Assembly: GCA_963802945.1 (NCBI GenBank)
Contig: CAWDKY010000067.1
Coordinates: 1-10,720, forward strand
Reading direction: 5' to 3'
From: an uncultured delta proteobacterium
Lineage (GTDB): Bacteria; Desulfobacterota; RBG-13-43-22
DNA: 10,720 nt
Part shown: piece after piece, positions 406 to 10,720 of the stretch
How the letters are laid out: each line of letters opens with the position of its first letter
How positions within the stretch are numbered: position 1 is the stretch's first letter
The notes under the pieces: generated by a model
The model's database searches: none
What the model saw: only the letters and a program-made list of their open reading frames with translations
What the model was told of the DNA's origin: nothing
Position numbers and translations under genes: made by a program

Positions 406-1128
406 TCAAGGATTTTTATTTTTTTGCGGCTGTTTTTGGGCCAGTTTTTCTTTACAGATCTGGATATAGTGTTCCAATTTAGGTGGGTGGGTCGTTTCGG
501 GGAAATGCTGAACGATACCTTCAAACCTGCCCAGAGCCGCGTCATAATTCTTTCTCTTAAAATAATATTCCCCTATATAAAATTCATGAGAGGCCAATTT
601 TTTTTTGGCGGTTATCAGATGGGTTTGGGCTTGGGAAATATATTCGCTCTGAGGATAGTTTTTGATCAATCGATCGAATTCCTGAACTGCTTGTAAAGCG
701 TAACTCTGGTCCCGGTCAACAGTGGGCATTTGTTTAAAGTAACACATGGCCACTTGAAAAATTACATAAGGAATGATTTCATTGACTGGATGTAATTTTT
801 CGAATTCCTTATAGGCCGTAGCCGCCAACAAATATTCTTTATTTAAGAAATAACCGTCGGCTAATTTAAGCTCAGCGACGATCGCATAGGGATTGTAAGG
901 GAAACGATCTTTTAACTTTTGAAAGGCTTCAGTGGCTTTTTCATATTTTTTTCGCTGATAGGCATCCAGGCCTTCCTGAATCAGGGCTTCGGGGGTCTTT
1001 TCCAGTTCTTTGGCCTCTTTGCTTTTAAAATATCCGCAACTCACCATGGAGAATAAAAACCAACCGATGATCAGAACAATCAGGCTGTATTTGTAAAAGG
1101 AATGTGTAAAAAGCGGATTTTTTCTCAT
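406..1128 (-). CDS. bamD: Outer membrane protein assembly factor BamD (YfiO/ComL family TPR lipoprotein)
   Basis: Hydrophobic signal peptide ending in a lipobox-like MVS-C. TPR-like helices with family-typical segments (LKDRFPYNPYA, FEKLHP, VDRDQS, YPQSEY, LASHEFYIGEYYFK). Its ATG overlaps the trxB stop (ATGA, 1125-1128). Confidence 0.9.
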   Translation of the reverse strand: MRKNPLFTHSFYKYSLIVLIIGWFLFSMVSCGYFKSKEAKELEKTPEALIQEGLDAYQRKKYEKATEAFQKLKDRFPYNPYAIVAELKLADGYFLNKEYLLAATAYKEFEKLHPVNEIIPYVIFQVAMCYFKQMPTVDRDQSYALQAVQEFDRLIKNYPQSEYISQAQTHLITAKKKLASHEFYIGEYYFKRKNYDAALGRFEGIVQHFPETTHPPKLEHYIQICKEKLAQKQPQKNKNP

Positions 1129-2054
1129 AGGGCCTCCAGGTATCTCTCGGCGGCAAAGGCGGCTGTGGCCCCATCACCAACCGATGTGGATATCTGTCTC
1201 AATAGTTTTTGGCGGACATCTCCGGCGGCAAAAATTCCCGGCACGGAGGTGGCCAGGTGTTCACTAGTTTGAATAAACCCTTCGGGATTCAACGGCAAGG
1301 TCTCTTTCAACCAATCGGTGTTGGGTTGGATCCCGACCAGAATAAAGACCCCTTGAATGGGAATCATCTGTTTGGAGGAGTCATCCACTGTTTTAACCCG
1401 AATCCCTTCGACTTGGTCGGTTCCCAGGATGGCTTCCACCACCGTTTTCCAAACAGGTTGGATGGCAGGATGGGCCAAGGCCTTTTCTTGAAGGATTTGG
1501 GTGGCTCGAAGCCGATCCCTTCGGTGGATCAGATAAACTTTTTTTGCAAAACGGGTTAAATAAAGGGCCTCTTGAACGGCGGTGTCTCCGCCCCCGACGA
1601 CGGCAATCTCCTGATCCTTAAAAAAAGGACCATCACAGGTGGCGCAATAAGAAACACCTTTACCTCTTAAAAGTCCTTCTCCCGGGACTCCTAATTTTTT
1701 ATAAATCGCTCCGGTGGCGATAACCAAGGCCCTGGTTTTATAGATACCCTGGTTTCCGTGCAATATTTTTGCAGTTCCTTGAAGAGACAGGGAAACAATT
1801 TTATCATTGGTGACCGGCAATTCGAACCGCTCGGCCTGTCGGCGCATATTATCCACTAAGTCAAAGCCGGTAATCCCTTCGGGAAAGCCGGGATAATTGT
1901 CCACCCAGTCAGTATTTAAAACTTGTCCTCCCGGTACGAACTGTTCTATAAGAAGGGTGCTAAGTCGGGAACGTCGGGCGTACAGCCCGGCGGTCAGCCC
2001 TGCCGGGCCTCCACCAATGATAATCAGGTCGTAAATAGGATTTTCTAAGGGCAT
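1125..2054 (-). CDS. trxB: Thioredoxin-disulfide reductase
   Basis: FAD-binding GGGPAGLTAG, active site GVSYCATCDG, NADPH-binding GGGDTA and HRRDRLRA, C-terminal TSVPGIFAAGD. Adjacent to thioredoxin. Confidence 0.96.
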   Translation of the reverse strand: MPLENPIYDLIIIGGGPAGLTAGLYARRSRLSTLLIEQFVPGGQVLNTDWVDNYPGFPEGITGFDLVDNMRRQAERFELPVTNDKIVSLSLQGTAKILHGNQGIYKTRALVIATGAIYKKLGVPGEGLLRGKGVSYCATCDGPFFKDQEIAVVGGGDTAVQEALYLTRFAKKVYLIHRRDRLRATQILQEKALAHPAIQPVWKTVVEAILGTDQVEGIRVKTVDDSSKQMIPIQGVFILVGIQPNTDWLKETLPLNPEGFIQTSEHLATSVPGIFAAGDVRQKLLRQISTSVGDGATAAFAAERYLEAL

Positions 2055-2055
2055 A

Positions 2056-2385
2056 CTACAAGGTTTTTTTTATGGCAGTTTCCAGGGTGCTTTTGGAAAC
2101 TGCTCCGGTGATCTGTTCGACCACTTTTCCGTTTTTAAAAAGGATTAGGGTGGGGATGGCTCGGATTCCATAGTGGCCCGGTGTTTTGGGATTGTCATCC
2201 ACATTCAGCTTGCCTATTTTGATCTGACCTTGAAATTGAACGGCCAATTCTTCCACCACCGGGGCAATCGCCCGACAAGGACCGCACCAAGGAGCCCAAA
2301 AGTCAACCAGGGCCGGGGTAGAAGCTTCTGTTATTTCCTTTTGAAAATTTTCGTCGGTGACTTCGGCAATATTTTTTCCTGCCAT
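2056..2385 (-). CDS. trxA: Thioredoxin
   Basis: 109 aa with VDFWAPWCGPC and GIRAIPTL. SD-like GGGAG just upstream of the ATG. Confidence 0.97.
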   Translation of the reverse strand: MAGKNIAEVTDENFQKEITEASTPALVDFWAPWCGPCRAIAPVVEELAVQFQGQIKIGKLNVDDNPKTPGHYGIRAIPTLILFKNGKVVEQITGAVSKSTLETAIKKTL

Positions 2386-2443
2386 GATCTCTCCCTTCTG
2401 TATTCTGTGGTTACACAGTTAGGATATGCTGAACGCACAAAGG

Positions 2444-2472
2444 ATTCTAATTCCCTTTGGTTTCAATGTCAA
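2444..2472 (-). promoter_or_regulatory. Sigma70-type promoter for trxA-trxB-bamD
   Basis: Minus strand reads TTGACA (2472-2467), a 17-nt spacer, then TAGAAT (2449-2444), about 60 nt upstream of the trxA start. Confidence 0.75.
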
Positions 2473-2592
2473 TACTTACCCAAAATTCTAACCAAATATA
2501 TTTAAAATTTTGGAAAGTTCAAGGGGGGTCTTATTTTCAAAAGCAGGAGATAACTTCTCGGATTTCTGGTGTAAGGATTTAAAGGAAAAATT

Positions 2593-2620
2593 TTGACTTT
2601 GATGGTGTTTTTGGTTTAAT
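2593..2620 (+). promoter_or_regulatory. Putative sigma70 promoter for the aminotransferase-hom cluster
   Basis: TTGACT (2593-2598), a 16-nt spacer, then TTTAAT (2615-2620) preceded by an extended -10 TG (2612-2613). Confidence 0.55.
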
Positions 2621-2653
2621 GTCTTATGTGGTCATATGAAAAAGGAGATTGAT

Positions 2654-3829
2654 ATGGAAGAATTCAGACGAATGAACCGGTTACCCCCTTATGTCTTTGC
2701 CACAGTCGATGCCTTAAAAATGGAATTGCGACGTCAGGGTGAGGATATTATCGATTTGGGAATGGGGAATCCTGACTTGGCTACCCCAAAACATATTGTA
2801 GATAAACTTCGGGAAGCCTCTTTGAAATCCCATAACCATCGTTATTCAGCATCCAGGGGGATCACCCGGCTCCGAAAAGCCATCTGTGACTGGTATAAAA
2901 GGCGTTTTCAAGTGGAGCTGGACCCGGAAACAGAAGCCATTGTGACCATAGGGGCCAAGGAGGGGATATCCCATCTGGTCCTGGCCACCACCAGTCCTGG
3001 TGATGTGATCTTCGCGCCTGATCCCACCTACCCGATTCATCCCTTTTCGGTTATCATTGCCGGAGGGGATCTAAGAAGTATTCCTATAAGTCAGGATCGG
3101 GATTTTTTTGAAGACCTGCTGACGGCCACAAAACAAACCTGGCCCAGTCCGAAAATGTTGATCATCTCCTTTCCCCATAACCCCACCACTACGGTGGTGG
3201 ATAAGGGATTTTTTAAAAATATCGTGGCCTTTGCACAGGAACATCGTATGATGGTCATCCACGACTTTGCTTATGCCGATCTGGTCTTTGACGGGTATAA
3301 GGCCCCCAGTTTTATGCAGATTCCCGGGGCAAAAGAAGTTGGGGTGGAATTTTTTTCGTTGTCCAAGAGTTACAGCATGCCTGGATGGCGAGTGGGTTTT
3401 GCCGTGGGAAATCCCCAGTTGATTCACGCCCTGACCCGTATAAAAAGTTATTTGGACTATGGGGTTTTTCAGCCGATCCAGATTGCCTCCATCATTGCCT
3501 TAAATGGGCCTCAGGAGTGCGTTCAGGAGATCGTCGGCATATACCAGGAAAGAAGGGATGCCCTGATTCGGGGGCTGAACCAAGTCGGTTGGAGAACGGA
3601 AAAACCCAAAGGGACCATGTTTGTCTGGTCAAAAATTCCCGAGCCCTTTAGAAAAATGGGTTCGGTGGAATTTTCCAAGTTTCTCATACGAGAAGGGAAG
3701 GTGGCCGTATCCCCCGGACGGGGCTTCGGAGAATACGGGGATGAATATGTCCGGTTTGCTTTGGTAGAAAACCCCCATCGTATCCAACAGGCGGTCAGGG
3801 GCATTAAAAAGGCATTGAACAAGGGCTAA
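2654..3829 (+). CDS. alaC: PLP-dependent aminotransferase class I/II, AlaC/YfdZ-like
   Basis: N-terminal RLPPYVF...[10 protein letters not shown], plus FPHNPT, HDFAY, the PLP-lysine motif [14 protein letters not shown] and KSYLDYG. Start moved from 2636 to ATG 2654 because of the AAGGAG SD at 2642-2647. Exact substrate is uncertain. Confidence 0.8.
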
Positions 3830-3881
3830 TGGCTTCAAATAAAATCTCAGAATTCAAGGACGAGCCTATAGTGAGGGGGTT

Positions 3882-5186
3882 ATGAAAGAGATTCAGGTTG
3901 GCTTAATCGGTTTCGGCACGGTGGGAACCGGGGTGGTAAAGATTTTGATTGAAAAAGAAGGACTTCTTCGATCCCTGGTCGGTGCTCCCATGAAATTAAA
4001 AAGGATCGCCGATCTGGATTTGAAACGGAATCGAGGGATCAAGATTCCCAAGGGGCTTTTGGTGAATAGAGCCGATGACATCCTTAATGATCCGGACATC
4101 TCCATTGTGATAGAACTGATAGGGGGTTTGGAACCGGCCCGAACCCTTATTTTAAAGGCCCTGGGAAAAGGGAAACACGTAGTAACGGCCAACAAGGCCT
4201 TGCTGGCCCACAAGGGGGATGAAATTTTTCAAAAGGCCTTTGATCGTAAGTTGGATATCGGCTTTGAGGCCAGCGTTTGCGGAGGCATTCCGGTTATCAT
4301 GGCCCTTCAGCAGGGGCTGGTGGCCAATGATATTGAAAGCATTTTAGGGATCTTTAACGGGACCTCCAATTATATCCTGACGCGGATGACTGAAGAAGGT
4401 CTGCCTTATTCACAGGCCTTGAAGGAGGCCCAACAAAAAGGATACGCCGAGGCCGATCCCACCCTGGATGTGGAGGGCATGGATACGGTCCATAAACTGA
4501 CCATTTTAATGCATCTGGCCTATGGCTCTCCGTTAAATCCTGAGACTGTTTTTGTGGAAGGCATTACTCGAATCGGGGCATTGGACATTGAATTTGCCCG
4601 GGAATTCGGTTACTCGATCAAGCTTCTGGCCATCTGTCGAAAGGAAGGGGACCTTTTAGAGGCGAGGGTCCACCCGACCATGATTCCTAAAATTCATATG
4701 TTGACCAGTGTGCAGGGGGCCTATAATGCCCTTTATATAAAGGGAGATTCAGTGGGAGATGTTTTGCTCTACGGAAAGGGAGCTGGCATGATGCCTACCG
4801 GAAGCGCCGTAGTCAGTGATCTGGTCAATATGGGCCGAAATATCAACAAAGGAGTTGCCCAAAGAATCCCCCAGAACCTTTCAAGAAAAAGCTTTAAAGA
4901 AAAGGGCTTGGCTTTTAAGCCTTTTACTGATGTGTTAACCCGTTACTATTTTAGGTTTTCCGCTTTGGATCGCCCCGGAGTCCTTTCCACCATAGCCGGC
5001 ATTCTTGGGGCCTATCAAATCAGTGTGGCCTCGGTGATCCAAAAAGGGCGGGAAACTAAAGGGTCTGTCCCGATCGTTATGATGACCCATGAGGCCAGAG
5101 AATCATCGGTTCACAAGGCCATCCAAAAGATTGACCGGCTGCCGGTGATTACTGATAGAACGATGATTATCAGGGTGGAAAATTAA
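3882..5186 (+). CDS. hom: Homoserine dehydrogenase with C-terminal ACT domain
   Basis: GFGTVG Rossmann motif, VVTANKA, FEASVCGGIP, GIFNGTSNYIL, GYAEADPTLDVEG, GKGAG, and an ACT domain (DRPGVLS). SD-like GAGGGGG upstream. Confidence 0.95.
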   Translation: MKEIQVGLIGFGTVGTGVVKILIEKEGLLRSLVGAPMKLKRIADLDLKRNRGIKIPKGLLVNRADDILNDPDISIVIELIGGLEPARTLILKALGKGKHVVTANKALLAHKGDEIFQKAFDRKLDIGFEASVCGGIPVIMALQQGLVANDIESILGIFNGTSNYILTRMTEEGLPYSQALKEAQQKGYAEADPTLDVEGMDTVHKLTILMHLAYGSPLNPETVFVEGITRIGALDIEFAREFGYSIKLLAICRKEGDLLEARVHPTMIPKIHMLTSVQGAYNALYIKGDSVGDVLLYGKGAGMMPTGSAVVSDLVNMGRNINKGVAQRIPQNLSRKSFKEKGLAFKPFTDVLTRYYFRFSALDRPGVLSTIAGILGAYQISVASVIQKGRETKGSVPIVMMTHEARESSVHKAIQKIDRLPVITDRTMIIRVEN

Positions 5187-5196
5187 AAACATAGAA

Positions 5197-5309
5197 AGGG
5201 TCAAAGGATTCGAGGATTCAAGGGTTCACAAAGACTACCGGTCTAAGGTGTAAGGTTTACGGTATTCGGTTTTTCCTTGAACCTTGCACCTTGTACCTTA
5301 AACCTGCAA
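5197..5309. repeat. Octamer tandem array followed by an inverted pair of heptamer arrays
   Basis: AGGGTCAA AGGATTCG AGGATTCA AGGGTTCA (5197-5228). Then GGTCTAA GGTGTAA GGTTTAC GGTATTC GGT (5240-5270), TTTT, and CCTTGAA CCTTGCA CCTTGTA CCTTAAA CCTGCAA (5275-5309). The two heptamer arms are in-register reverse complements. Confidence 0.85.
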
Positions 5310-5331
5310 TCATTCTATTCCTTTATTTATT

Positions 5332-6561
5332 ATGAGTCCTGAAAAAAGAAAATACATCATTTTAGTTGGGGACGGGATGGGGGATTACCCTCAAGAGGCC
5401 CTGGATGGAAAGACCCCCCTGGAAGCGGCTCATACACCCCATATGGATAAAACGGCCTCCCAGGGGATTATGGGGTGTGCTCAAACCGTCCCGTCGGCCT
5501 GTGAACCGGGAAGTGATATTGCCAACCTCTCCCTTATGGGATATGACCCGTTGATCTATCATACTGGCCGCGCCCCATTGGAAGCGGTCAGTATGGGGAT
5601 TCGATTAAAGGATGAGGACGTGGCCTTTCGCTGCAATCTGGTTTGTCTGGATCACCAGGGAAATGATGCAGTGGTCATGGATTCTTATAGCGCCGGTCAT
5701 ATTTCTACCGAAGAAGCCAAGATTTTAATCAATGACCTGAACGGGTTTTTAGCTCGTCCCGAGTTGTCTTTCTATCCGGGGGTTAGTTACCGACATATCC
5801 TGGTCTGGTCCGGGGCTGATCCATCGGCCAAGACCAAGCCCCCCCATGACCTGAGCGGGCAGAATGTGACCGACTACTTGAAATCCAAGGGGGAATTGGG
5901 ACCGATTGTGGATCTGATGCGCCGGACCTGGCCTTTTCTCAGCCGACACCCGATCAATCAGAACAGACTGGAACGCGGTTTGGTTCCGGCTAATTCCATT
6001 TGGTTGTGGGGTCAAGGAAAGCCACCGGCAATGCCCTCTTTCCTGGAAAGATTCGGCCTTCAGGGGGGAGTGATTTCCGCTGTAGATCTTTTAAAAGGTA
6101 TTGGATTGTGCGCTGGGTTGGAATCCATTTTTGTAAAGGGAATGACCGGATATTTAGATACTAATTTCCTGGGGAAGGCCGAAAAAGCTCTGGCTTTCCT
6201 GGCCGAAAAAGACCTGGTTTATGTCCATGTAGAGGCCCCGGATGAGGCTTCCCATGAAGGCAGCCTGGAGAAGAAAATCCAGGCCATTGAGGCCTTCGAT
6301 CGAGAGGTTGTGGAGCCGGTTCTTATTGGGTTGAGTCGATTTGAAGCCTATTCCTTGATGATTGTGACCGATCATTTCACGCCTATCCAGGTCATGACCC
6401 ACACTCGGGAGCCAGTCCCTTTATCGATCTTCTGTTCTGGAGACCAGCACCGTCCTTCCCGAAAAAGAGGTTTCTCCGAAAGAGCGGCTTTGGAGGGAGA
6501 GGTCTCTTTTTTAAAGGGAGATCAGTTGATGCCCTGGTTTCTCAAAGCCCATCAGGGGTGA
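5332..6561 (+). CDS. apgM: ApgM-type cofactor-independent phosphoglycerate mutase family protein (alkaline phosphatase superfamily); candidate alternative homoserine kinase
   Basis: GDGMGD, GKTPLEAA, catalytic-Ser region PGSDIANL, GRAPLEA, AFRCNLV, ANSIWLWGQG, and metal ligands in HVEAPDEASH and TDH...TH. Lies directly downstream of hom. Confidence 0.85.
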   Translation: MSPEKRKYIILVGDGMGDYPQEALDGKTPLEAAHTPHMDKTASQGIMGCAQTVPSACEPGSDIANLSLMGYDPLIYHTGRAPLEAVSMGIRLKDEDVAFRCNLVCLDHQGNDAVVMDSYSAGHISTEEAKILINDLNGFLARPELSFYPGVSYRHILVWSGADPSAKTKPPHDLSGQNVTDYLKSKGELGPIVDLMRRTWPFLSRHPINQNRLERGLVPANSIWLWGQGKPPAMPSFLERFGLQGGVISAVDLLKGIGLCAGLESIFVKGMTGYLDTNFLGKAEKALAFLAEKDLVYVHVEAPDEASHEGSLEKKIQAIEAFDREVVEPVLIGLSRFEAYSLMIVTDHFTPIQVMTHTREPVPLSIFCSGDQHRPSRKRGFSERAALEGEVSFLKGDQLMPWFLKAHQG

Positions 6562-6565
6562 TAAA

Positions 6566-6967
6566 ATGAAATTTTTTCAAACGACTTACCGGGTTATTTA
6601 CGGCGATGTGGATTCCATGAAAATGGCCTATTATGCCAATTATTTGCGCTGGTTTGAGATCGGCCGTTCGGAACTGATTCGCCATTTGGGGCTTCCCTAT
6701 GCCGAGATAGAAGCCAGAGGATATCGACTGCCGGTTACCGAAGCTTACTTAAAATATAACAAGCCGGCCCGTTATGATGAAATAATACTGATCAACAGCG
6801 GTGTGGGATTTATCCGCAAGGCCTCTATGCGGTTTGACTATAGAATTTTTAACCGGGAGGAAGATCTCTTGGTTCAAGGATACACGGTCCATGCCTGTCT
6901 GGATCCGGAAGGCAAATTGGTTCGTCTTCCTGAATCCGTGATCACCCTTTTGGCAAAATGGAAATAG
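6566..6967 (+). CDS. Acyl-CoA thioesterase, YbgC/FadM (4HBT hot-dog) family
   Basis: 133 aa with RVIYGDVDSMKMAYYANYLRWFEIGRSE and YNKPARYDE, matching the YbgC-family signature. Starts 4 nt after the apgM stop. Confidence 0.85.
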   Translation: MKFFQTTYRVIYGDVDSMKMAYYANYLRWFEIGRSELIRHLGLPYAEIEARGYRLPVTEAYLKYNKPARYDEIILINSGVGFIRKASMRFDYRIFNREEDLLVQGYTVHACLDPEGKLVRLPESVITLLAKWK

Positions 6968-7029
6968 CCTTTATTTTCCCATTGGAACTTCTTTCCCCTT
7001 AACCCATTCAAAATGTAAGGAGCAACTTC

Positions 7030-7413
7030 TTGTCTGAAGCCGAAGCCGCCAAAACGATTAAGGCTTATTTTGAGGCCTTTAACGCCCATGATAATAAGAC
7101 TTTTCTGGATACCCACCACTTCCCTCACATCCGGATCAACGACAAGGGACAGGTGAGTATCGTCCAAAATGCCTCGGAATTATTACCTCTGGATGAAACA
7201 CTGACCAACTTGACTAAAAAAGAAAGATGGTACCACAGCACTCTGGACTCGCTGGAAGTCATTCATGCTTCGGAAATCAAGGTCCATTTTAATATCCAAT
7301 TCAGTCGATATAAGGCGGACGGATCCAAGTATGCGGTTTACAAATCCCTGTGGATCATTACAAAGAAGGATGGCCGCTGGGGTATACAAGCCCGCTCCAG
7401 CTACGCCCCTTAG
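7030..7413 (+). CDS. Small protein, probable NTF2/SnoaL-like fold, function unknown
   Basis: 127 aa. TTG start with AAGGAG SD (7017-7022). N-terminal YFEAFNAHD helix and C-terminal strand-turn-strand WIITKKDGRWGI are typical of NTF2-like proteins. Confidence 0.65.
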   Translation: MSEAEAAKTIKAYFEAFNAHDNKTFLDTHHFPHIRINDKGQVSIVQNASELLPLDETLTNLTKKERWYHSTLDSLEVIHASEIKVHFNIQFSRYKADGSKYAVYKSLWIITKKDGRWGIQARSSYAP

Positions 7414-7556
7414 GGCAGCTTAAAATAATTAATGGGCTGCTTCTCAACTTTCCACTCATGATAAAAAGAGGATCGACTTCAGGGAAATCTCTATCTCAGC
7501 AATTAACCTTTTCAGCCAGACACCAGAAACATTAGCTGACCAGCATAGAATATTTC

Positions 7557-7585
7557 TTGACAAGCGGGTTTCCCTCACCTATAAA
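7557..7585 (+). promoter_or_regulatory. Sigma70 promoter of bioB
   Basis: TTGACA (7557-7562), a 17-nt spacer, then TATAAA (7580-7585). Confidence 0.8.
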
Positions 7586-7586
7586 G

Positions 7587-7613
7587 GTTAACCAATTTTA
7601 AAGAAAAGTTAAC
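7587..7613. promoter_or_regulatory. BirA-type biotin operator
   Basis: GTTAAC (7587-7592)-N15-GTTAAC (7608-7613) matches the core of the BirA box (TGTtAAC-N14-16-GTTaACA). It covers the predicted transcription start and ends just before the bioB SD. Confidence 0.75.
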
Positions 7614-7629
7614 TATCGGGAGATTTGTT

Positions 7630-8646
7630 TTGAAAAACATCGTATCATTTTTCGGAGAAAAAGTATTGGGCGGAGAGGCGTTAACCCAGGCTATGGCCGG
7701 TCAGTTGGGTGAGATGAAGGAGCCGGAGGCGATATTTGATCTTATTTACTGGGCCAATAAAATACGGCAGAAATTTAAAGGGGAGACCATTGATCTTTGT
7801 GCCATAGTCAACGCCAAATCCGGCCGCTGTTCCGAAGATTGTGCCTTTTGTGCCCAATCCTCCTGGTATCCTACTGAGGCTCCGAATTATCCTCTATTAG
7901 AGACCGACGAATTACTGGCTTCGGCCCATAAAGCCTTTGAGAACAAAGCCGGACGCTTTGGCATCGTTACCAGCGGACGCTCCCTGTCCAGTCCCACAGA
8001 ATTGGACCGGGTTTGTCGGGTGATTTCTATACTTTCTACAGAAGGACAAATCAACCCCTGTGCTTCTTTGGGTCTGCTGACTCCGGATATGGTTAAGGCC
8101 TTAAAACTGGCCGGGCTAACATCCTATCATCACAACATCGAAACCTCCCCCAGCTTTTATCCTTCCATCTGCACTACCCATTCTTTTGAGGCTCGGGTCA
8201 AGACCATTCAGGTGGCTAAAGAAGAAGGGTTGCGTGTCTGTTCCGGGGGAATATTCGGCCTGGGAGAAACTATGGAACAGCGTCTGGAGATGGCTTTTAC
8301 CTTAAGGGAGTTAGGGGTCGATTCAATTCCTCTGAATTTTTTAAATGCAATTCCCGGCACACCTCTTGAGGGCCTTCCTTCTTTGCCTCCACTGGAACTT
8401 TTAAAGGTTATAGCTCTTTTTCGTTTTATCCTTCCCCAAGCAGATATTCGAACCTGTGGCGGAAGGGAAAAAGGACTCCGTACTTTGCAGCCTCTAATGT
8501 ATATGGCCGGATGTAATGGGACGATGATTGGGAATTATCTGACAACCGAGGGAAGAAACCCCAAGGTGGATATTCAGGAGATAAGGGATTTAGGATTGGT
8601 TCCAAGTGTAGAATGCGAGAATAAAAAAACACACCAAGCAAGATAA
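7630..8646 (+). CDS. bioB: Biotin synthase (radical SAM), probably type II
   Basis: NAKSGRCSEDCAFCAQS (CxxxCxxC), CASLG, YHHNIETS, VCSGGIFGLGE, SIPLNFL, PGTPL, GGRE and GNYLTT. TTG start with GGGAG SD at 7618-7622. Upstream BirA-like operator. Confidence 0.95.
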   Translation: MKNIVSFFGEKVLGGEALTQAMAGQLGEMKEPEAIFDLIYWANKIRQKFKGETIDLCAIVNAKSGRCSEDCAFCAQSSWYPTEAPNYPLLETDELLASAHKAFENKAGRFGIVTSGRSLSSPTELDRVCRVISILSTEGQINPCASLGLLTPDMVKALKLAGLTSYHHNIETSPSFYPSICTTHSFEARVKTIQVAKEEGLRVCSGGIFGLGETMEQRLEMAFTLRELGVDSIPLNFLNAIPGTPLEGLPSLPPLELLKVIALFRFILPQADIRTCGGREKGLRTLQPLMYMAGCNGTMIGNYLTTEGRNPKVDIQEIRDLGLVPSVECENKKTHQAR

Positions 8647-9364: not shown

Positions 9365-9420
9365 TCCGGCAACAGAGTCCAGGGCCCTTAAGGCAGCTCA
9401 TTGTTTCTCGATGTAACCGC

Positions 9421-10614
9421 CTATAATTGTTCTACTAAAGCCACCATCTCACGTACGGCCTGATCCAGTCCCACATACACGGCCCGGGCAATAATACTGT
9501 GGCCGATACTGTATTCTGTGATGTCTTCCAATCCCTGAAACCGCTTGAGGTTAACGTAATTGAGCCCGTGACCGGCACTGACTTTCAAGCCTAATTGGAC
9601 TCCCAGCTGCGCCCCGTTGACAATCCGCTCAAAAAGCCGCAAAACCTCTTTTTCCGTTTTGGCCTCGGCATAATGGCCGGTATGCAGTTCGATGATCTCG
9701 GCCCCTACCTCCTTGGAGGCCCGAATTTGCTCCGGAACGGCATCCACGAACAGACTGACGGCTATTTTGCCTCGGTGCAGCCGTTTGATGGTTTCCTTCA
9801 ATCCTTTCTGCTGTCCTTGGACATCGAGTCCTCCTTCGGTGGTCAATTCCTGCCTTTTTTCCGGCACCAGGGTAACCATCGGCGGGCGGACTTTCAAGGC
9901 GATCCGAATGATTTCTTCCGCTGCAGCCATTTCCAGGTTTAATTTGGTTTTGACGGTTTCTTTCAAAATAAAAAGATCGCGGTCTTGAATATGTCTTCGA
10001 TCTTCACGCAGGTGAACAATGATCCCTTCAGCTCCGGCCAGCTCGGCTATGCCGGCGGCCATAACCGGGTCGGGTTCATCAATCTTTCTGGCCTGGCGTA
10101 TGGTGGCGACGTGATCCACATTGACGGCCAAACGGGGGATTTGCATCCTTGTTTCCTCCTTTTTGTTGGTTTCGATACGGGTCATGATTTCCTCGGCCTT
10201 GGATTCCATCCGCCGGGCCTCCAACGCCGAGCCTTCGTGATCATAACCGGATAAATGTAATAACCCATGAATCAATAAGAATTGAAGGCGTTCGTTTAGC
10301 GTTATCCCGGCTTCCTGAGCCTCCCGCCCGGCGGTTTCGGTGGAAATAACCACATCCCCCCAGAGTTGGGGATTGATCTCCGGAAACAGGCCTTCTTTCA
10401 TGGGAAAGGCCAGGACATTGGTCGGACCTTCTCGGCCCAGATATCTCCTGTTATAGCGAGACATCTCCCGGTCCTCAACCAAGAGAAGACTGACTTCCCC
10501 TTTAGGTGTTCCCCAGGCCTTTGAGGTCTGCAGACTGATTTTCCGAATCTCTGCCGGGTCTATCAGAGTCTGCCGGTTGTTTATCTGTATCTCCATTTGG
10601 TTTTTTCTTGGCAC
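9421..10614 (-). CDS. ybeY-pdxJ: YbeY endoribonuclease - PdxJ pyridoxine 5'-phosphate synthase in-frame fusion
   Basis: Residues ~7-150 are YbeY (PTNVLAF, GDVVIS, HGLLHLSGYDH). Residues 157-397 are PdxJ (LAVNVDHVATIRQAR, VHLREDRRHI, LNLEMA, VTLVPEKRQELTTEGGLDV, IELHTG, AGHGLNY, IGHSII). No stop codon lies between them. The start is either GTG 10614 or ATG 10596. Confidence 0.9.
   Translation of the reverse strand: MPRKNQMEIQINNRQTLIDPAEIRKISLQTSKAWGTPKGEVSLLLVEDREMSRYNRRYLGREGPTNVLAFPMKEGLFPEINPQLWGDVVISTETAGREAQEAGITLNERLQFLLIHGLLHLSGYDHEGSALEARRMESKAEEIMTRIETNKKEETRMQIPRLAVNVDHVATIRQARKIDEPDPVMAAGIAELAGAEGIIVHLREDRRHIQDRDLFILKETVKTKLNLEMAAAEEIIRIALKVRPPMVTLVPEKRQELTTEGGLDVQGQQKGLKETIKRLHRGKIAVSLFVDAVPEQIRASKEVGAEIIELHTGHYAEAKTEKEVLRLFERIVNGAQLGVQLGLKVSAGHGLNYVNLKRFQGLEDITEYSIGHSIIARAVYVGLDQAVREMVALVEQL
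10144..10160 (-). promoter_or_regulatory. Internal ribosome-binding site and in-frame ATG for stand-alone PdxJ (9421..10146, 241 aa)
   Basis: Minus strand reads AAAAAGGAGGAAACAAGGATG: AGGAGG (10160-10155), 8 nt, then ATG (10146-10144) at the PdxJ domain boundary. Confidence 0.8.
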
Positions 10615-10720
10615 TCCCGCTTTTGATGCTGGCTTCAGGGTATTCGATCCGATGATGGAAAATCCCGTTTAAAATTTGATTAAAACTGGCGGCTATCAGA
10701 GAAAGATCTTTCAAGGTCAG
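10502..10720 (-). CDS. C-terminal end of an HD-family (7TM-HDIG, PgpH-like) phosphohydrolase; 5' part lies outside the window
   Basis: The frame is open to the window edge and reads LTLKDLSLIAASFNQILNGIFHHRIEYP, resembling the conserved C-terminus (H-x-R-I-x-YP) of PgpH-like proteins. These genes commonly precede ybeY. Confidence 0.7.
   Translation of the reverse strand: MTLKDLSLIAASFNQILNGIFHHRIEYPEASIKSGSAKKKPNGDTDKQPADSDRPGRDSENQSADLKGLGNT

Follow-up and report, generated by a model that had tools for sequence, protein, structure and literature searches.

Does a single open reading frame (ORF) in an uncultured delta proteobacterium truly join YbeY to PdxJ in one protein, and, if it does, how many products come from it? 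The frame lies on contig CAWDKY010000067.1 of assembly GCA_963802945.1, in a stretch of 10,720 nucleotides (nt) that was analysed as a whole and that we call the window. We found that this ybeY::pdxJ fusion is real, old, and maintained. Its architecture is already catalogued in databases and appears to be unstudied; new here, and apparently unreported, is a conserved internal ribosome-binding site and start codon at the junction, which predicts two products from one frame.

Positions 9421 to 10614 of the minus strand form a single stop-free frame of 397 codons, counted from a GTG. The original prediction of one uninterrupted frame holding a complete YbeY and a complete PdxJ was borne out by profile searches, all of which scored above their cut-offs. 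Pfam YbeY (PF02130) matched residues 36-146 of the 397-amino-acid (aa) form (E 1.7e-30; 105.9 bits, cut-off 25), and Pfam PdxJ (PF03740) matched residues 161-393 over profile positions 1-233 of 234 (E 1.2e-97; 326.1 bits, cut-off 24.5). Among the NCBIfam models, the YbeY half scored 117.7 bits (cut-off 45) with the 'rRNA maturation RNase YbeY' equivalog TIGR00043, while the PdxJ half scored 350.7 bits (cut-off 190) with the 'pyridoxine 5'-phosphate synthase' equivalog NF003625 and 288.1 bits (cut-off 192.75) with TIGR00559. The predicted metal motif HGLLHLSGYDH is likewise present where it was claimed to be. With YbeY first, a short junction, and full-length alignment to named members, the protein belongs with the YbeY-PdxJ fusion proteins. 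The predicted 397-codon frame is indeed open from the GTG, but translation more likely begins at the ATG at 10596, for a protein of 391 aa and 43.9 kDa, because 391 aa is common among homologue clusters (the second commonest length, in 16 of 120, after 389 aa in 39 of 120). The parts of the locus are as follows.

Positions 9421 to 10596, minus strand: ybeY::pdxJ fusion ORF, 391 codons plus the stop TAG at 9421-9423; a start at the GTG at 10614 is also possible (397 codons).
Positions 10147 to 10596, minus strand: YbeY domain, residues 1-150 of the 391-aa form (PF02130; structure 1oz9, E 3.9e-20; E. coli structure 1xm5, E 1e-15).
Residues 124-150: C-terminal helix of YbeY, reaching the junction, from the AlphaFold secondary structure.
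Positions 10237 to 10269, minus strand: zinc motif HGLLHLSGYDH, with His110, His114, and His120 of the 391-aa form corresponding to E. coli H114, H118, and H124.
Positions 10155 to 10161, minus strand: internal Shine-Dalgarno (SD) sequence AAGGAGG, 8 nt 5' of the internal ATG and translated as Lys-Glu-Glu within the 'linker'.
Positions 10144 to 10146, minus strand: in-frame ATG, Met151 of the 391-aa form or Met157 of the 397-aa form, aligned with the start codon of split pdxJ genes.
Positions 9424 to 10146, minus strand: TIM-barrel domain of PdxJ (pyridoxine 5'-phosphate synthase), from Pfam, NCBIfam, and the alignment to 1m5w.

At the junction, the original prediction had seen a short charged linker, IETNKKEETR. 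These residues do stand directly before the methionine encoded at 10144-10146, but they are better read as nucleotides, which carry the retained SD of pdxJ: AAAAAGGAGGAA, encoding the Lys-Lys-Glu-Glu of this linker, holds the SD, and AAGGAGGAAACAAGGATG, at 10144-10161, is unique. The junction codon was ATG in 55 of 55 fused loci, aligned with the start codon of split pdxJ genes, and an SD core of at least 5 nt stood at -17 to -4 of this ATG in 52 of the 55, as against 5.7% of control codon positions (1081 of 19017) and 21 of the 401 remaining in-frame ATGs in these ORFs. From core to ATG the distance was 6-10 nt in 49 of 54 fused loci. The encoded peptide varied widely, with 42 distinct 5-residue strings preceding the junction methionine (e.g., KEETR, RRNVF, TRRHT, KRREY, and NGGHK), and the GGAG core was read in codon phase 1 at 27 loci and in phase 2 at 26. 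As the residues vary and two codon phases are used, the constraint therefore appears to act on the nucleotides and not on the residues.

The messenger RNA (mRNA) at this site was weakly folded as well. In the window, the junction mRNA folded worse than 193 of 200 shuffles (z +1.77); across the fused loci, it was more weakly folded than the mean of its own ORF in 46 of 54, and in 29 of 54 it ranked within the least-folded tenth of the segments compared, with a junction GC content of 0.42 versus 0.51. An in-frame start, canonical SD spacing, conservation in relatives, and weakly folded mRNA are all found at this one site. Because the old SD and ATG are kept, in frame, in weakly folded mRNA, we infer internal initiation and hence two products, the 43.9-kDa YbeY-PdxJ protein and a free PdxJ of 241 aa and 26.8 kDa that is probably also made from the internal ATG. 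The ATG at 10596 showed no canonical SD in the 17 nt next to it, which would fit the long form being made in small amounts relative to PdxJ from the strong internal site. A hairpin hiding the internal start was considered on account of a terminator-like match at 10130-10154, and was rejected, as that match lies on the other strand and the mRNA there folds worse than shuffles. Frameshifting of the dnaX type on AACAAAAAG was likewise discarded, this run not being conserved outside the genus.

Some points weigh against internal initiation. The case for it is drawn from sequence. The loci are related, and counts such as 52 of 55 overstate their independence, which at the extreme is that of four clades. 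Three of the 55 loci carry a weak SD only, namely L014 (AAGGGGG) and L029 and L030 (both GAGAGGA). Furthermore, AAGGAGG occurs five times in the window, three of them within the fusion ORF, and at one of these three the conserved TEGG motif of PdxJ dictates the sequence.

The fusion itself is neither an assembly error nor a one-off event. The junction region, 10140-10200, was open in contigs of relatives from three other runs, and reads of the window itself were not found, as none of the public runs contained the window (best share of words 0.14). Two contigs from DNA runs, X1 record 3 (9841-10350) and X2 record 13 (9958-10500), spanned the region without an indel, as did X20 records 20 and 21, which come from an RNA library and show contiguity only. 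All differences in the relatives' junction contigs were substitutions, and the sole indel listed, at 9389, lies outside the ORF. Across the window's family, the fusion was uninterrupted and full-length in 18 of 20 other genomes; one of the remaining two (G009) held broken pieces and the other (G019, 90% complete) no match. Both Pfam domains were present in 114 of the best 120 homologous protein clusters (53-98% identity). A stop codon or frameshift before 10146, which the original prediction had named as a finding that would overturn it, was looked for in close and distant relatives, and none was seen.

Two further, damaged versions of the locus were observed in the same genome bin. One copy (L026, G000:C27:14501-17692) matches the window at 97.9% identity across 1.3 kb (window 9407-10719); a 1-nt insertion near window position 9766 breaks its PdxJ frame, its homology stops right after the stop codon, and its downstream context differs from that of the window. 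The other (L027, G000:C66:14310-16606), at a contig end, is 84% identical and contains stops. With the bin at 6.72% contamination, its three versions of the locus look like the product either of several strains or species binned together or of a duplication followed by decay. Another genome of the same family, G014, carries three full-length fused copies on contigs C12, C47, and C11, at 67-68% identity to the window, which are either true paralogues or bin redundancy.

How far the fusion extends was examined in 401 genomes sampled evenly across the phylum, which were searched with the fusion protein and in which every candidate locus was checked. One uninterrupted YbeY+PdxJ frame was found in 49 of the 401 genomes, belonging to 14 family codes: the window's family contributes 13, counting the window's own genome, and the other 36 are spread over 13 further family codes. 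In eleven more genomes, ybeY and pdxJ were adjacent and shared a frame that a single stop interrupts between the genes, most other fetched loci had ybeY directly upstream of pdxJ in a different frame, and several families had no PdxJ match at all. One genome, G208, was left out of all counts, its junction being masked with N. Two candidates, G029 and G023, were rejected as fusions, as stops separate the two genes. A supposed triple fusion in G185 (open frame of 1337 aa) was likewise dropped, the 1025 residues checked by Pfam showing only YbeY and PdxJ; at that locus (L046, G185:C33:50797-54567), the fused frame is open for more than 600 codons upstream of YbeY, which may have come about by chance in GC-rich DNA.

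A PdxJ tree of 83 rows (54 fused and 29 split) was built without the damaged extra copies L026, L027, and L028, the masked L031, and the truncated L063. The fused rows fell into four clades with Shimodaira-Hasegawa-like approximate likelihood ratio test (SH-aLRT) support of 96-99, one of which, with 19 rows and support 99, is the window's own family code, and the sister group of that clade consists of split families, mostly in-frame. The number of fusion origins on this tree lies between one and four, because four is the fewest state changes and one is what the well-supported branches force. Mapping of proteins with both domains, proposed with the original prediction, has thus placed them widely within a single phylum, in four clades.

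Beyond the phylum, two scans were made, which are a sample and not a proof of absence elsewhere. Among the best 150 matches of 1.84 billion representatives (50% identity), four were full-length fusions and four were fragments spanning the junction. Among the 80 loci listed in a scan of species genomes, nine were fused, all under the names Desulfobulbaceae, Desulfocapsaceae, Desulfobulbus, Deltaproteobacteria, or Thermodesulfobacteriota, five were adjacent but split, and 66 had no ybeY within 1.5 kb, 55 of which carried names of other groups (e.g., Nitrospirota, Cyanobacteria, Ignavibacteria, and Gammaproteobacteria) or unspecific names only. Some PdxJ-containing proteins far longer than 240 aa were also noticed, with PdxJ at the N-terminus in P0170 (782 aa) and at about residues 80-340 in P0147 (353 aa) and in P0185 and P0221 (331-336 aa); these may be other PdxJ fusions.

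The split relatives point to how the fusion came about. In 7 of the 11 in-frame split loci, the ybeY stop follows the SD and is 0-1 codon away from the pdxJ start (examples are ggaggaaTAGgaaATG in L069, gaggaggaagggTGAATG in L071, and aaggaggatTAGgaaGTG in L075), and the fused form is one base change in that stop away from the split form. Because the ybeY stop of split relatives lies between the pdxJ SD and the pdxJ start, these junction sequences show the fusion as arising from adjacent ybeY and pdxJ genes by loss of the ybeY stop codon.

Both halves of the protein look catalytically intact. The PdxJ part aligned without gaps to E. coli PdxJ (1m5w_A), residues 6-238 on 6-238, with E 5.4e-77. 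The E. coli active site, which we take to consist of N9, D11, H12, R20, H45, R47, H52, E72, T102, T103, E153, H193, G194, G215, and H216, is identical in the window at all of these positions, which are invariant or nearly so in 52 fused homologues. On the YbeY side, the H-x3-H-x5-H zinc triad aligned with that of E. coli YbeY (1xm5), its three histidines being invariant in 52 of 52 fused homologues, and PTNVLAF and GDVVIS of the window aligned with PTNVLSF and GDLVIC. Passages of a recent preprint describe YbeY as a zinc enzyme that forms isoaspartate in ribosomal protein uS11, a reaction that T65, N66, D85, and H114 of E. coli YbeY affect (bioRxiv 10.64898/2026.08.26.747336); the first three have counterparts in T59, N60, and D81, which are invariant or nearly so in the fused homologues. 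One residue seems at odds with a working YbeY: the counterpart of E. coli Arg59 is Leu53 in the window (391-aa form, about 10438-10440, minus strand), and this position is Leu in 13 of the 52 fused homologues, the window included, and Arg in 39. Arg59 was earlier proposed to matter for RNase activity, and according to passages of the same preprint, R59A keeps wild-type isoaspartate activity (bioRxiv 10.64898/2026.08.26.747336), because of which Leu at this position does not argue against YbeY membership. The uS11 of the same genome (G000:C14), ending in PIPHNGCRPPKKRRV, has the PHNG substrate motif, with Asn-Gly near its C-terminus. Because catalytic residues are kept in both domains, we expect both enzymes to work. 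Furthermore, all three PF02130 matches in the window's genome are the fusion loci, with no other YbeY, and 33 of the 36 fused genomes outside the window's family have a single PF02130 match; with no separate YbeY, the YbeY function must therefore come from the fusion protein.

An AlphaFold2 model from a 52-row alignment had a mean predicted local distance difference test score (pLDDT) of 87.6 and a predicted template modelling score (pTM) of 0.61, with two confident domains. In it, the YbeY helix 124-150 runs into residues 149-152, which have pLDDT below 50, and the first barrel strand follows at 155-159. The modelled tether is hence very short, about four residues, and is attached at the start of PdxJ strand 1, which in a TIM barrel lies on the face opposite the catalytic face. 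A pTM of 0.61 with confident domains does not indicate a confidently fixed arrangement of the two. A complex prediction of YbeY 1-148 against PdxJ 151-391, with 52-row alignments, scored 0.00 and 0.00 (mark 0.32) and speaks neither way, and no solved chain with both domains was found.

Four other accounts of the locus have to be weighed. That an assembly or sequencing error, or a one-off stop loss, disguises an organism with two separate genes could draw on the window's genome being metagenome-assembled with 6.72% contamination, on the two damaged copies of the locus in that genome (the C27 copy with its 1-nt insertion in the PdxJ part, the C66 copy with its stops), and on there being no public run that was found to contain the window itself. 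Against it, the junction is open in 18 of the 20 family genomes, in 36 genomes spread over 13 further family codes, and in the finished genomes of cultured species, and contigs of relatives from three other runs cross it without indels; as regards the architecture, this account is already refuted, and its chance is negligible. A weightier alternative is that the fusion is a tolerated neutral accident in which YbeY carries PdxJ as cargo, most PdxJ is made from the internal start, and the two activities do not cooperate, either functionally or physically. It predicts the same expression as our preferred explanation of a long-maintained, two-product gene, and selection for the fusion is the sole point of difference. 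Summed over the four fused clades, the tree holds 8.98 amino-acid changes per PdxJ site, and the last 5-10 codons before the methionine offer 2.7-4.7 single-base routes to a stop. Under a rough neutral model, 8-14 stop gains would be expected within the fused clades, and none was seen in 54 rows, although this expectation takes protein branch lengths as a conservative proxy for neutral distance and assumes a harmless re-split. The well-supported (starred) branches of the tree, which force one change only, would moreover allow the four clades to share one old, kept origin. The neutral account gains from the roughly four low-confidence linker residues and the pTM of 0.61 without a confident fixed interface, from an ancestral state one point mutation away from fusion, and from a tree needing up to four state changes, by which fusion may be easy. 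A further point against maintenance is the existence of a few close PdxJ-only entries of 240-241 aa (P0050, P0058, and P0101), two of which, P0058 and P0101, are 98-99.6% identical to genomes with the open frame; most simply, all three are different start calls, and a rare re-split behind them is possible. On balance, we regard a neutral accident as possible, if rather doubtful.

The remaining two alternatives concern the products. If only the full-length 44-kDa protein were made, the SD-like motif and its methionine would be left over or would serve the linker; one ORF is most simply read as encoding a single bifunctional polypeptide, and SD-like strings do occur elsewhere in it. A left-over would decay, yet all 55 loci retain the ATG and 52 of them the SD, across clades that are only about 50% identical. 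Service to the linker accords poorly with 42 different peptides at the site and a motif that shifts codon phase, and the low GC content and weak folding of the junction are typical of start sites. We therefore judge a sole 44-kDa product to be unlikely. Alternatively, a protease might cut the polypeptide in its linker, or translation might terminate or shift frame in a programmed way near the A-rich SD region, such that free YbeY exists. The low pLDDT (below 50) of linker residues 149-152 and the A-rich run AACAAAAAGG just 5' of the SD in the window would suit such splitting, but the run is not conserved in other clades and nothing points to a protease site, which leaves this account highly improbable.

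We thus consider it likely that the locus is a long-maintained bifunctional fusion gene that arose by stop loss, with its internal start kept and two products made. In this proposal, the stop of ybeY would have been lost in a tightly packed ybeY-pdxJ pair, after which ribosomes starting at ybeY would read straight into pdxJ and yield the 43.9-kDa protein, its last YbeY helix joined through about four residues to the first PdxJ barrel strand. Other ribosomes would start at the old pdxJ ATG and make the free 26.8-kDa PdxJ, such that one ORF would give two proteins and could supply the two activities in unequal amounts. PdxJ would then act in the 1-deoxy-D-xylulose 5-phosphate (DXP)-dependent vitamin B6 pathway, and the targets of YbeY would be uS11 and the small ribosomal subunit. 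Mixed oligomers in which some PdxJ subunits bear YbeY would be conceivable, as would a selective benefit of such an arrangement. A stronger version, in which selection keeps the fused two-product gene, a minority of PdxJ carries YbeY, and all YbeY sits on a large PdxJ oligomer, is tentative and on the whole rather unlikely. The idea, raised in the original prediction, that several YbeY domains are displayed on a PdxJ octamer, or that ribosome quality control is coupled to B6 status, is speculation.

Whether the fusion had been described, and how widespread it is, had been left open in the original prediction; it proved to be widespread in one phylum and catalogued in databases. Exact look-ups found it in finished genomes of the following cultured species, with Thermodesulfobacterium represented by five species or strains.

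Desulfurivibrio alkaliphilus: fusion, WP_013162690.1 (UniProt D6Z002).
Thermodesulfatator indicus: fusion, WP_013908098.1 (UniProt F8A996).
Caldimicrobium thiodismutans: fusion, WP_231938340.1.
Desulfobulbus oralis: fusion, WP_104935752.1.
Dissulfurimicrobium hydrothermale: fusion, WP_237888197.1.
Thermodesulfobacterium commune: fusion, WP_081856443.1.

UniProt names the protein 'Multifunctional fusion protein', NCBI names it 'pyridoxine 5'-phosphate synthase' only, leaving YbeY unnamed, and one JGI entry reads 'TIGR00043/pyridoxine 5'-phosphate synthase'; the names of the cultured entries come from automatic annotation. No published account of a YbeY-PdxJ fusion was found in literature searches, which did not reach every YbeY review. 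The fusions of cultured Thermodesulfobacteriota (391-403 aa, 44-55% identity to the window's protein) have their domains in the same order, a junction about as short, and, likewise conserved, an ATG preceded by an SD, whereas the window's clade is separate and known only from metagenome assemblies ('Deltaproteobacteria bacterium', 'Thermodesulfobacteriota bacterium'). The split ybeY and pdxJ genes of other Thermodesulfobacteriota agree with the fusion in gene order, strand, and pdxJ SD and start, and in 11 cases in frame, but in them YbeY is terminated by a stop that mostly falls between the SD and the start of pdxJ, and two proteins are made.

More distant parallels can be drawn. Passages of an Era review report YbeY-Era fusions in several Clostridia, some Selenomonadales, and Thermoleophilum album (PMC10582724). 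In these, too, YbeY is N-terminal and carries a C-terminal partner whose gene is a usual ybeY neighbour. They differ in that Era is YbeY's known small-subunit assembly partner, which gives an obvious rationale, while PdxJ is a metabolic enzyme for which we know of no ribosome role. The passages of that review on YbeY-Era fusions contain no description of a YbeY-PdxJ fusion; elsewhere in its passages, pdxJ figures with other metabolic genes as 'frequent satellites of ybeY genes', and also of era, with the associations called 'enigmatic', and the E. coli neighbourhood is given as rnc-era-recO-pdxJ-acpS (PMC10582724, 2023). That neighbourhood likewise places pdxJ beside ribosome-maturation genes, but as synteny of separate proteins, whereas the window encodes one polypeptide. 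For the two products, the closest likenesses are other genes with an in-frame internal start and its own SD, yielding a full-length and an N-terminally shortened product as predicted in the window. Bacterial clpB, infB, and cheA each give two proteins per frame in this way. Their short forms miss a regulatory or accessory part, whereas the predicted short form of the window is a complete ancestral stand-alone enzyme.

Within the window, ybeY::pdxJ is the last gene of a phoH / 7TM-HD (pgpH-like) / ybeY::pdxJ cluster and is followed by a convergent response-regulator gene. The gene upstream is cut by the window edge.

Positions 10502 to 10720, minus strand: 3' end of the upstream 7TM-HD (PgpH-like) gene, which runs past the window edge.

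In a full homologue of this gene on G000:C27, which a PhoH gene precedes, Pfam recognises 7TMR-HDED, 7TM-7TMR_HD, and HD. The end of the 7TM-HD gene and the first 95 nt of ybeY overlap in different frames (window 10502-10596, minus strand), and an overlap ending at +95 was found in 8 of the 12 family loci examined (L002-L017); the overlapping tail of the upstream protein is of low complexity. The rest of the window, from 406 to 8646, holds ordinary housekeeping genes: on the minus strand those of a BamD/YfiO-like lipoprotein, thioredoxin reductase, and thioredoxin, and on the plus strand those of an aminotransferase, homoserine dehydrogenase, a cofactor-independent phosphoglycerate mutase-like protein, a thioesterase, and a BioB-like radical SAM protein. 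Between the last two lies a 127-aa ORF (7030-7413, plus strand), for which Pfam gave no match.

The window adds an uncultured clade to a catalogued fusion, and with it a warning on annotation, as the NCBI naming 'pyridoxine 5'-phosphate synthase' omits YbeY. YbeY is nearly universal in bacteria, and its true role is being reconsidered in the light of the isoaspartate preprint; the fusion indicates that it can do its job with a 27-kDa barrel, probably oligomeric, on its C-terminus. In the fused lineage, both genes are expressed from one message, and the kept internal ribosome-binding site suggests that a fusion by stop loss can leave the amounts of the two proteins uncoupled. Cultured, non-pathogenic carriers exist in which the link between YbeY and PdxJ can be studied. 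If true, the proposed joint maintenance would physically link small-subunit maturation, with uS11 modification and Era, to vitamin B6 synthesis, and it would give a first handle on the unexplained neighbourhood of pdxJ with era and ybeY across bacteria.

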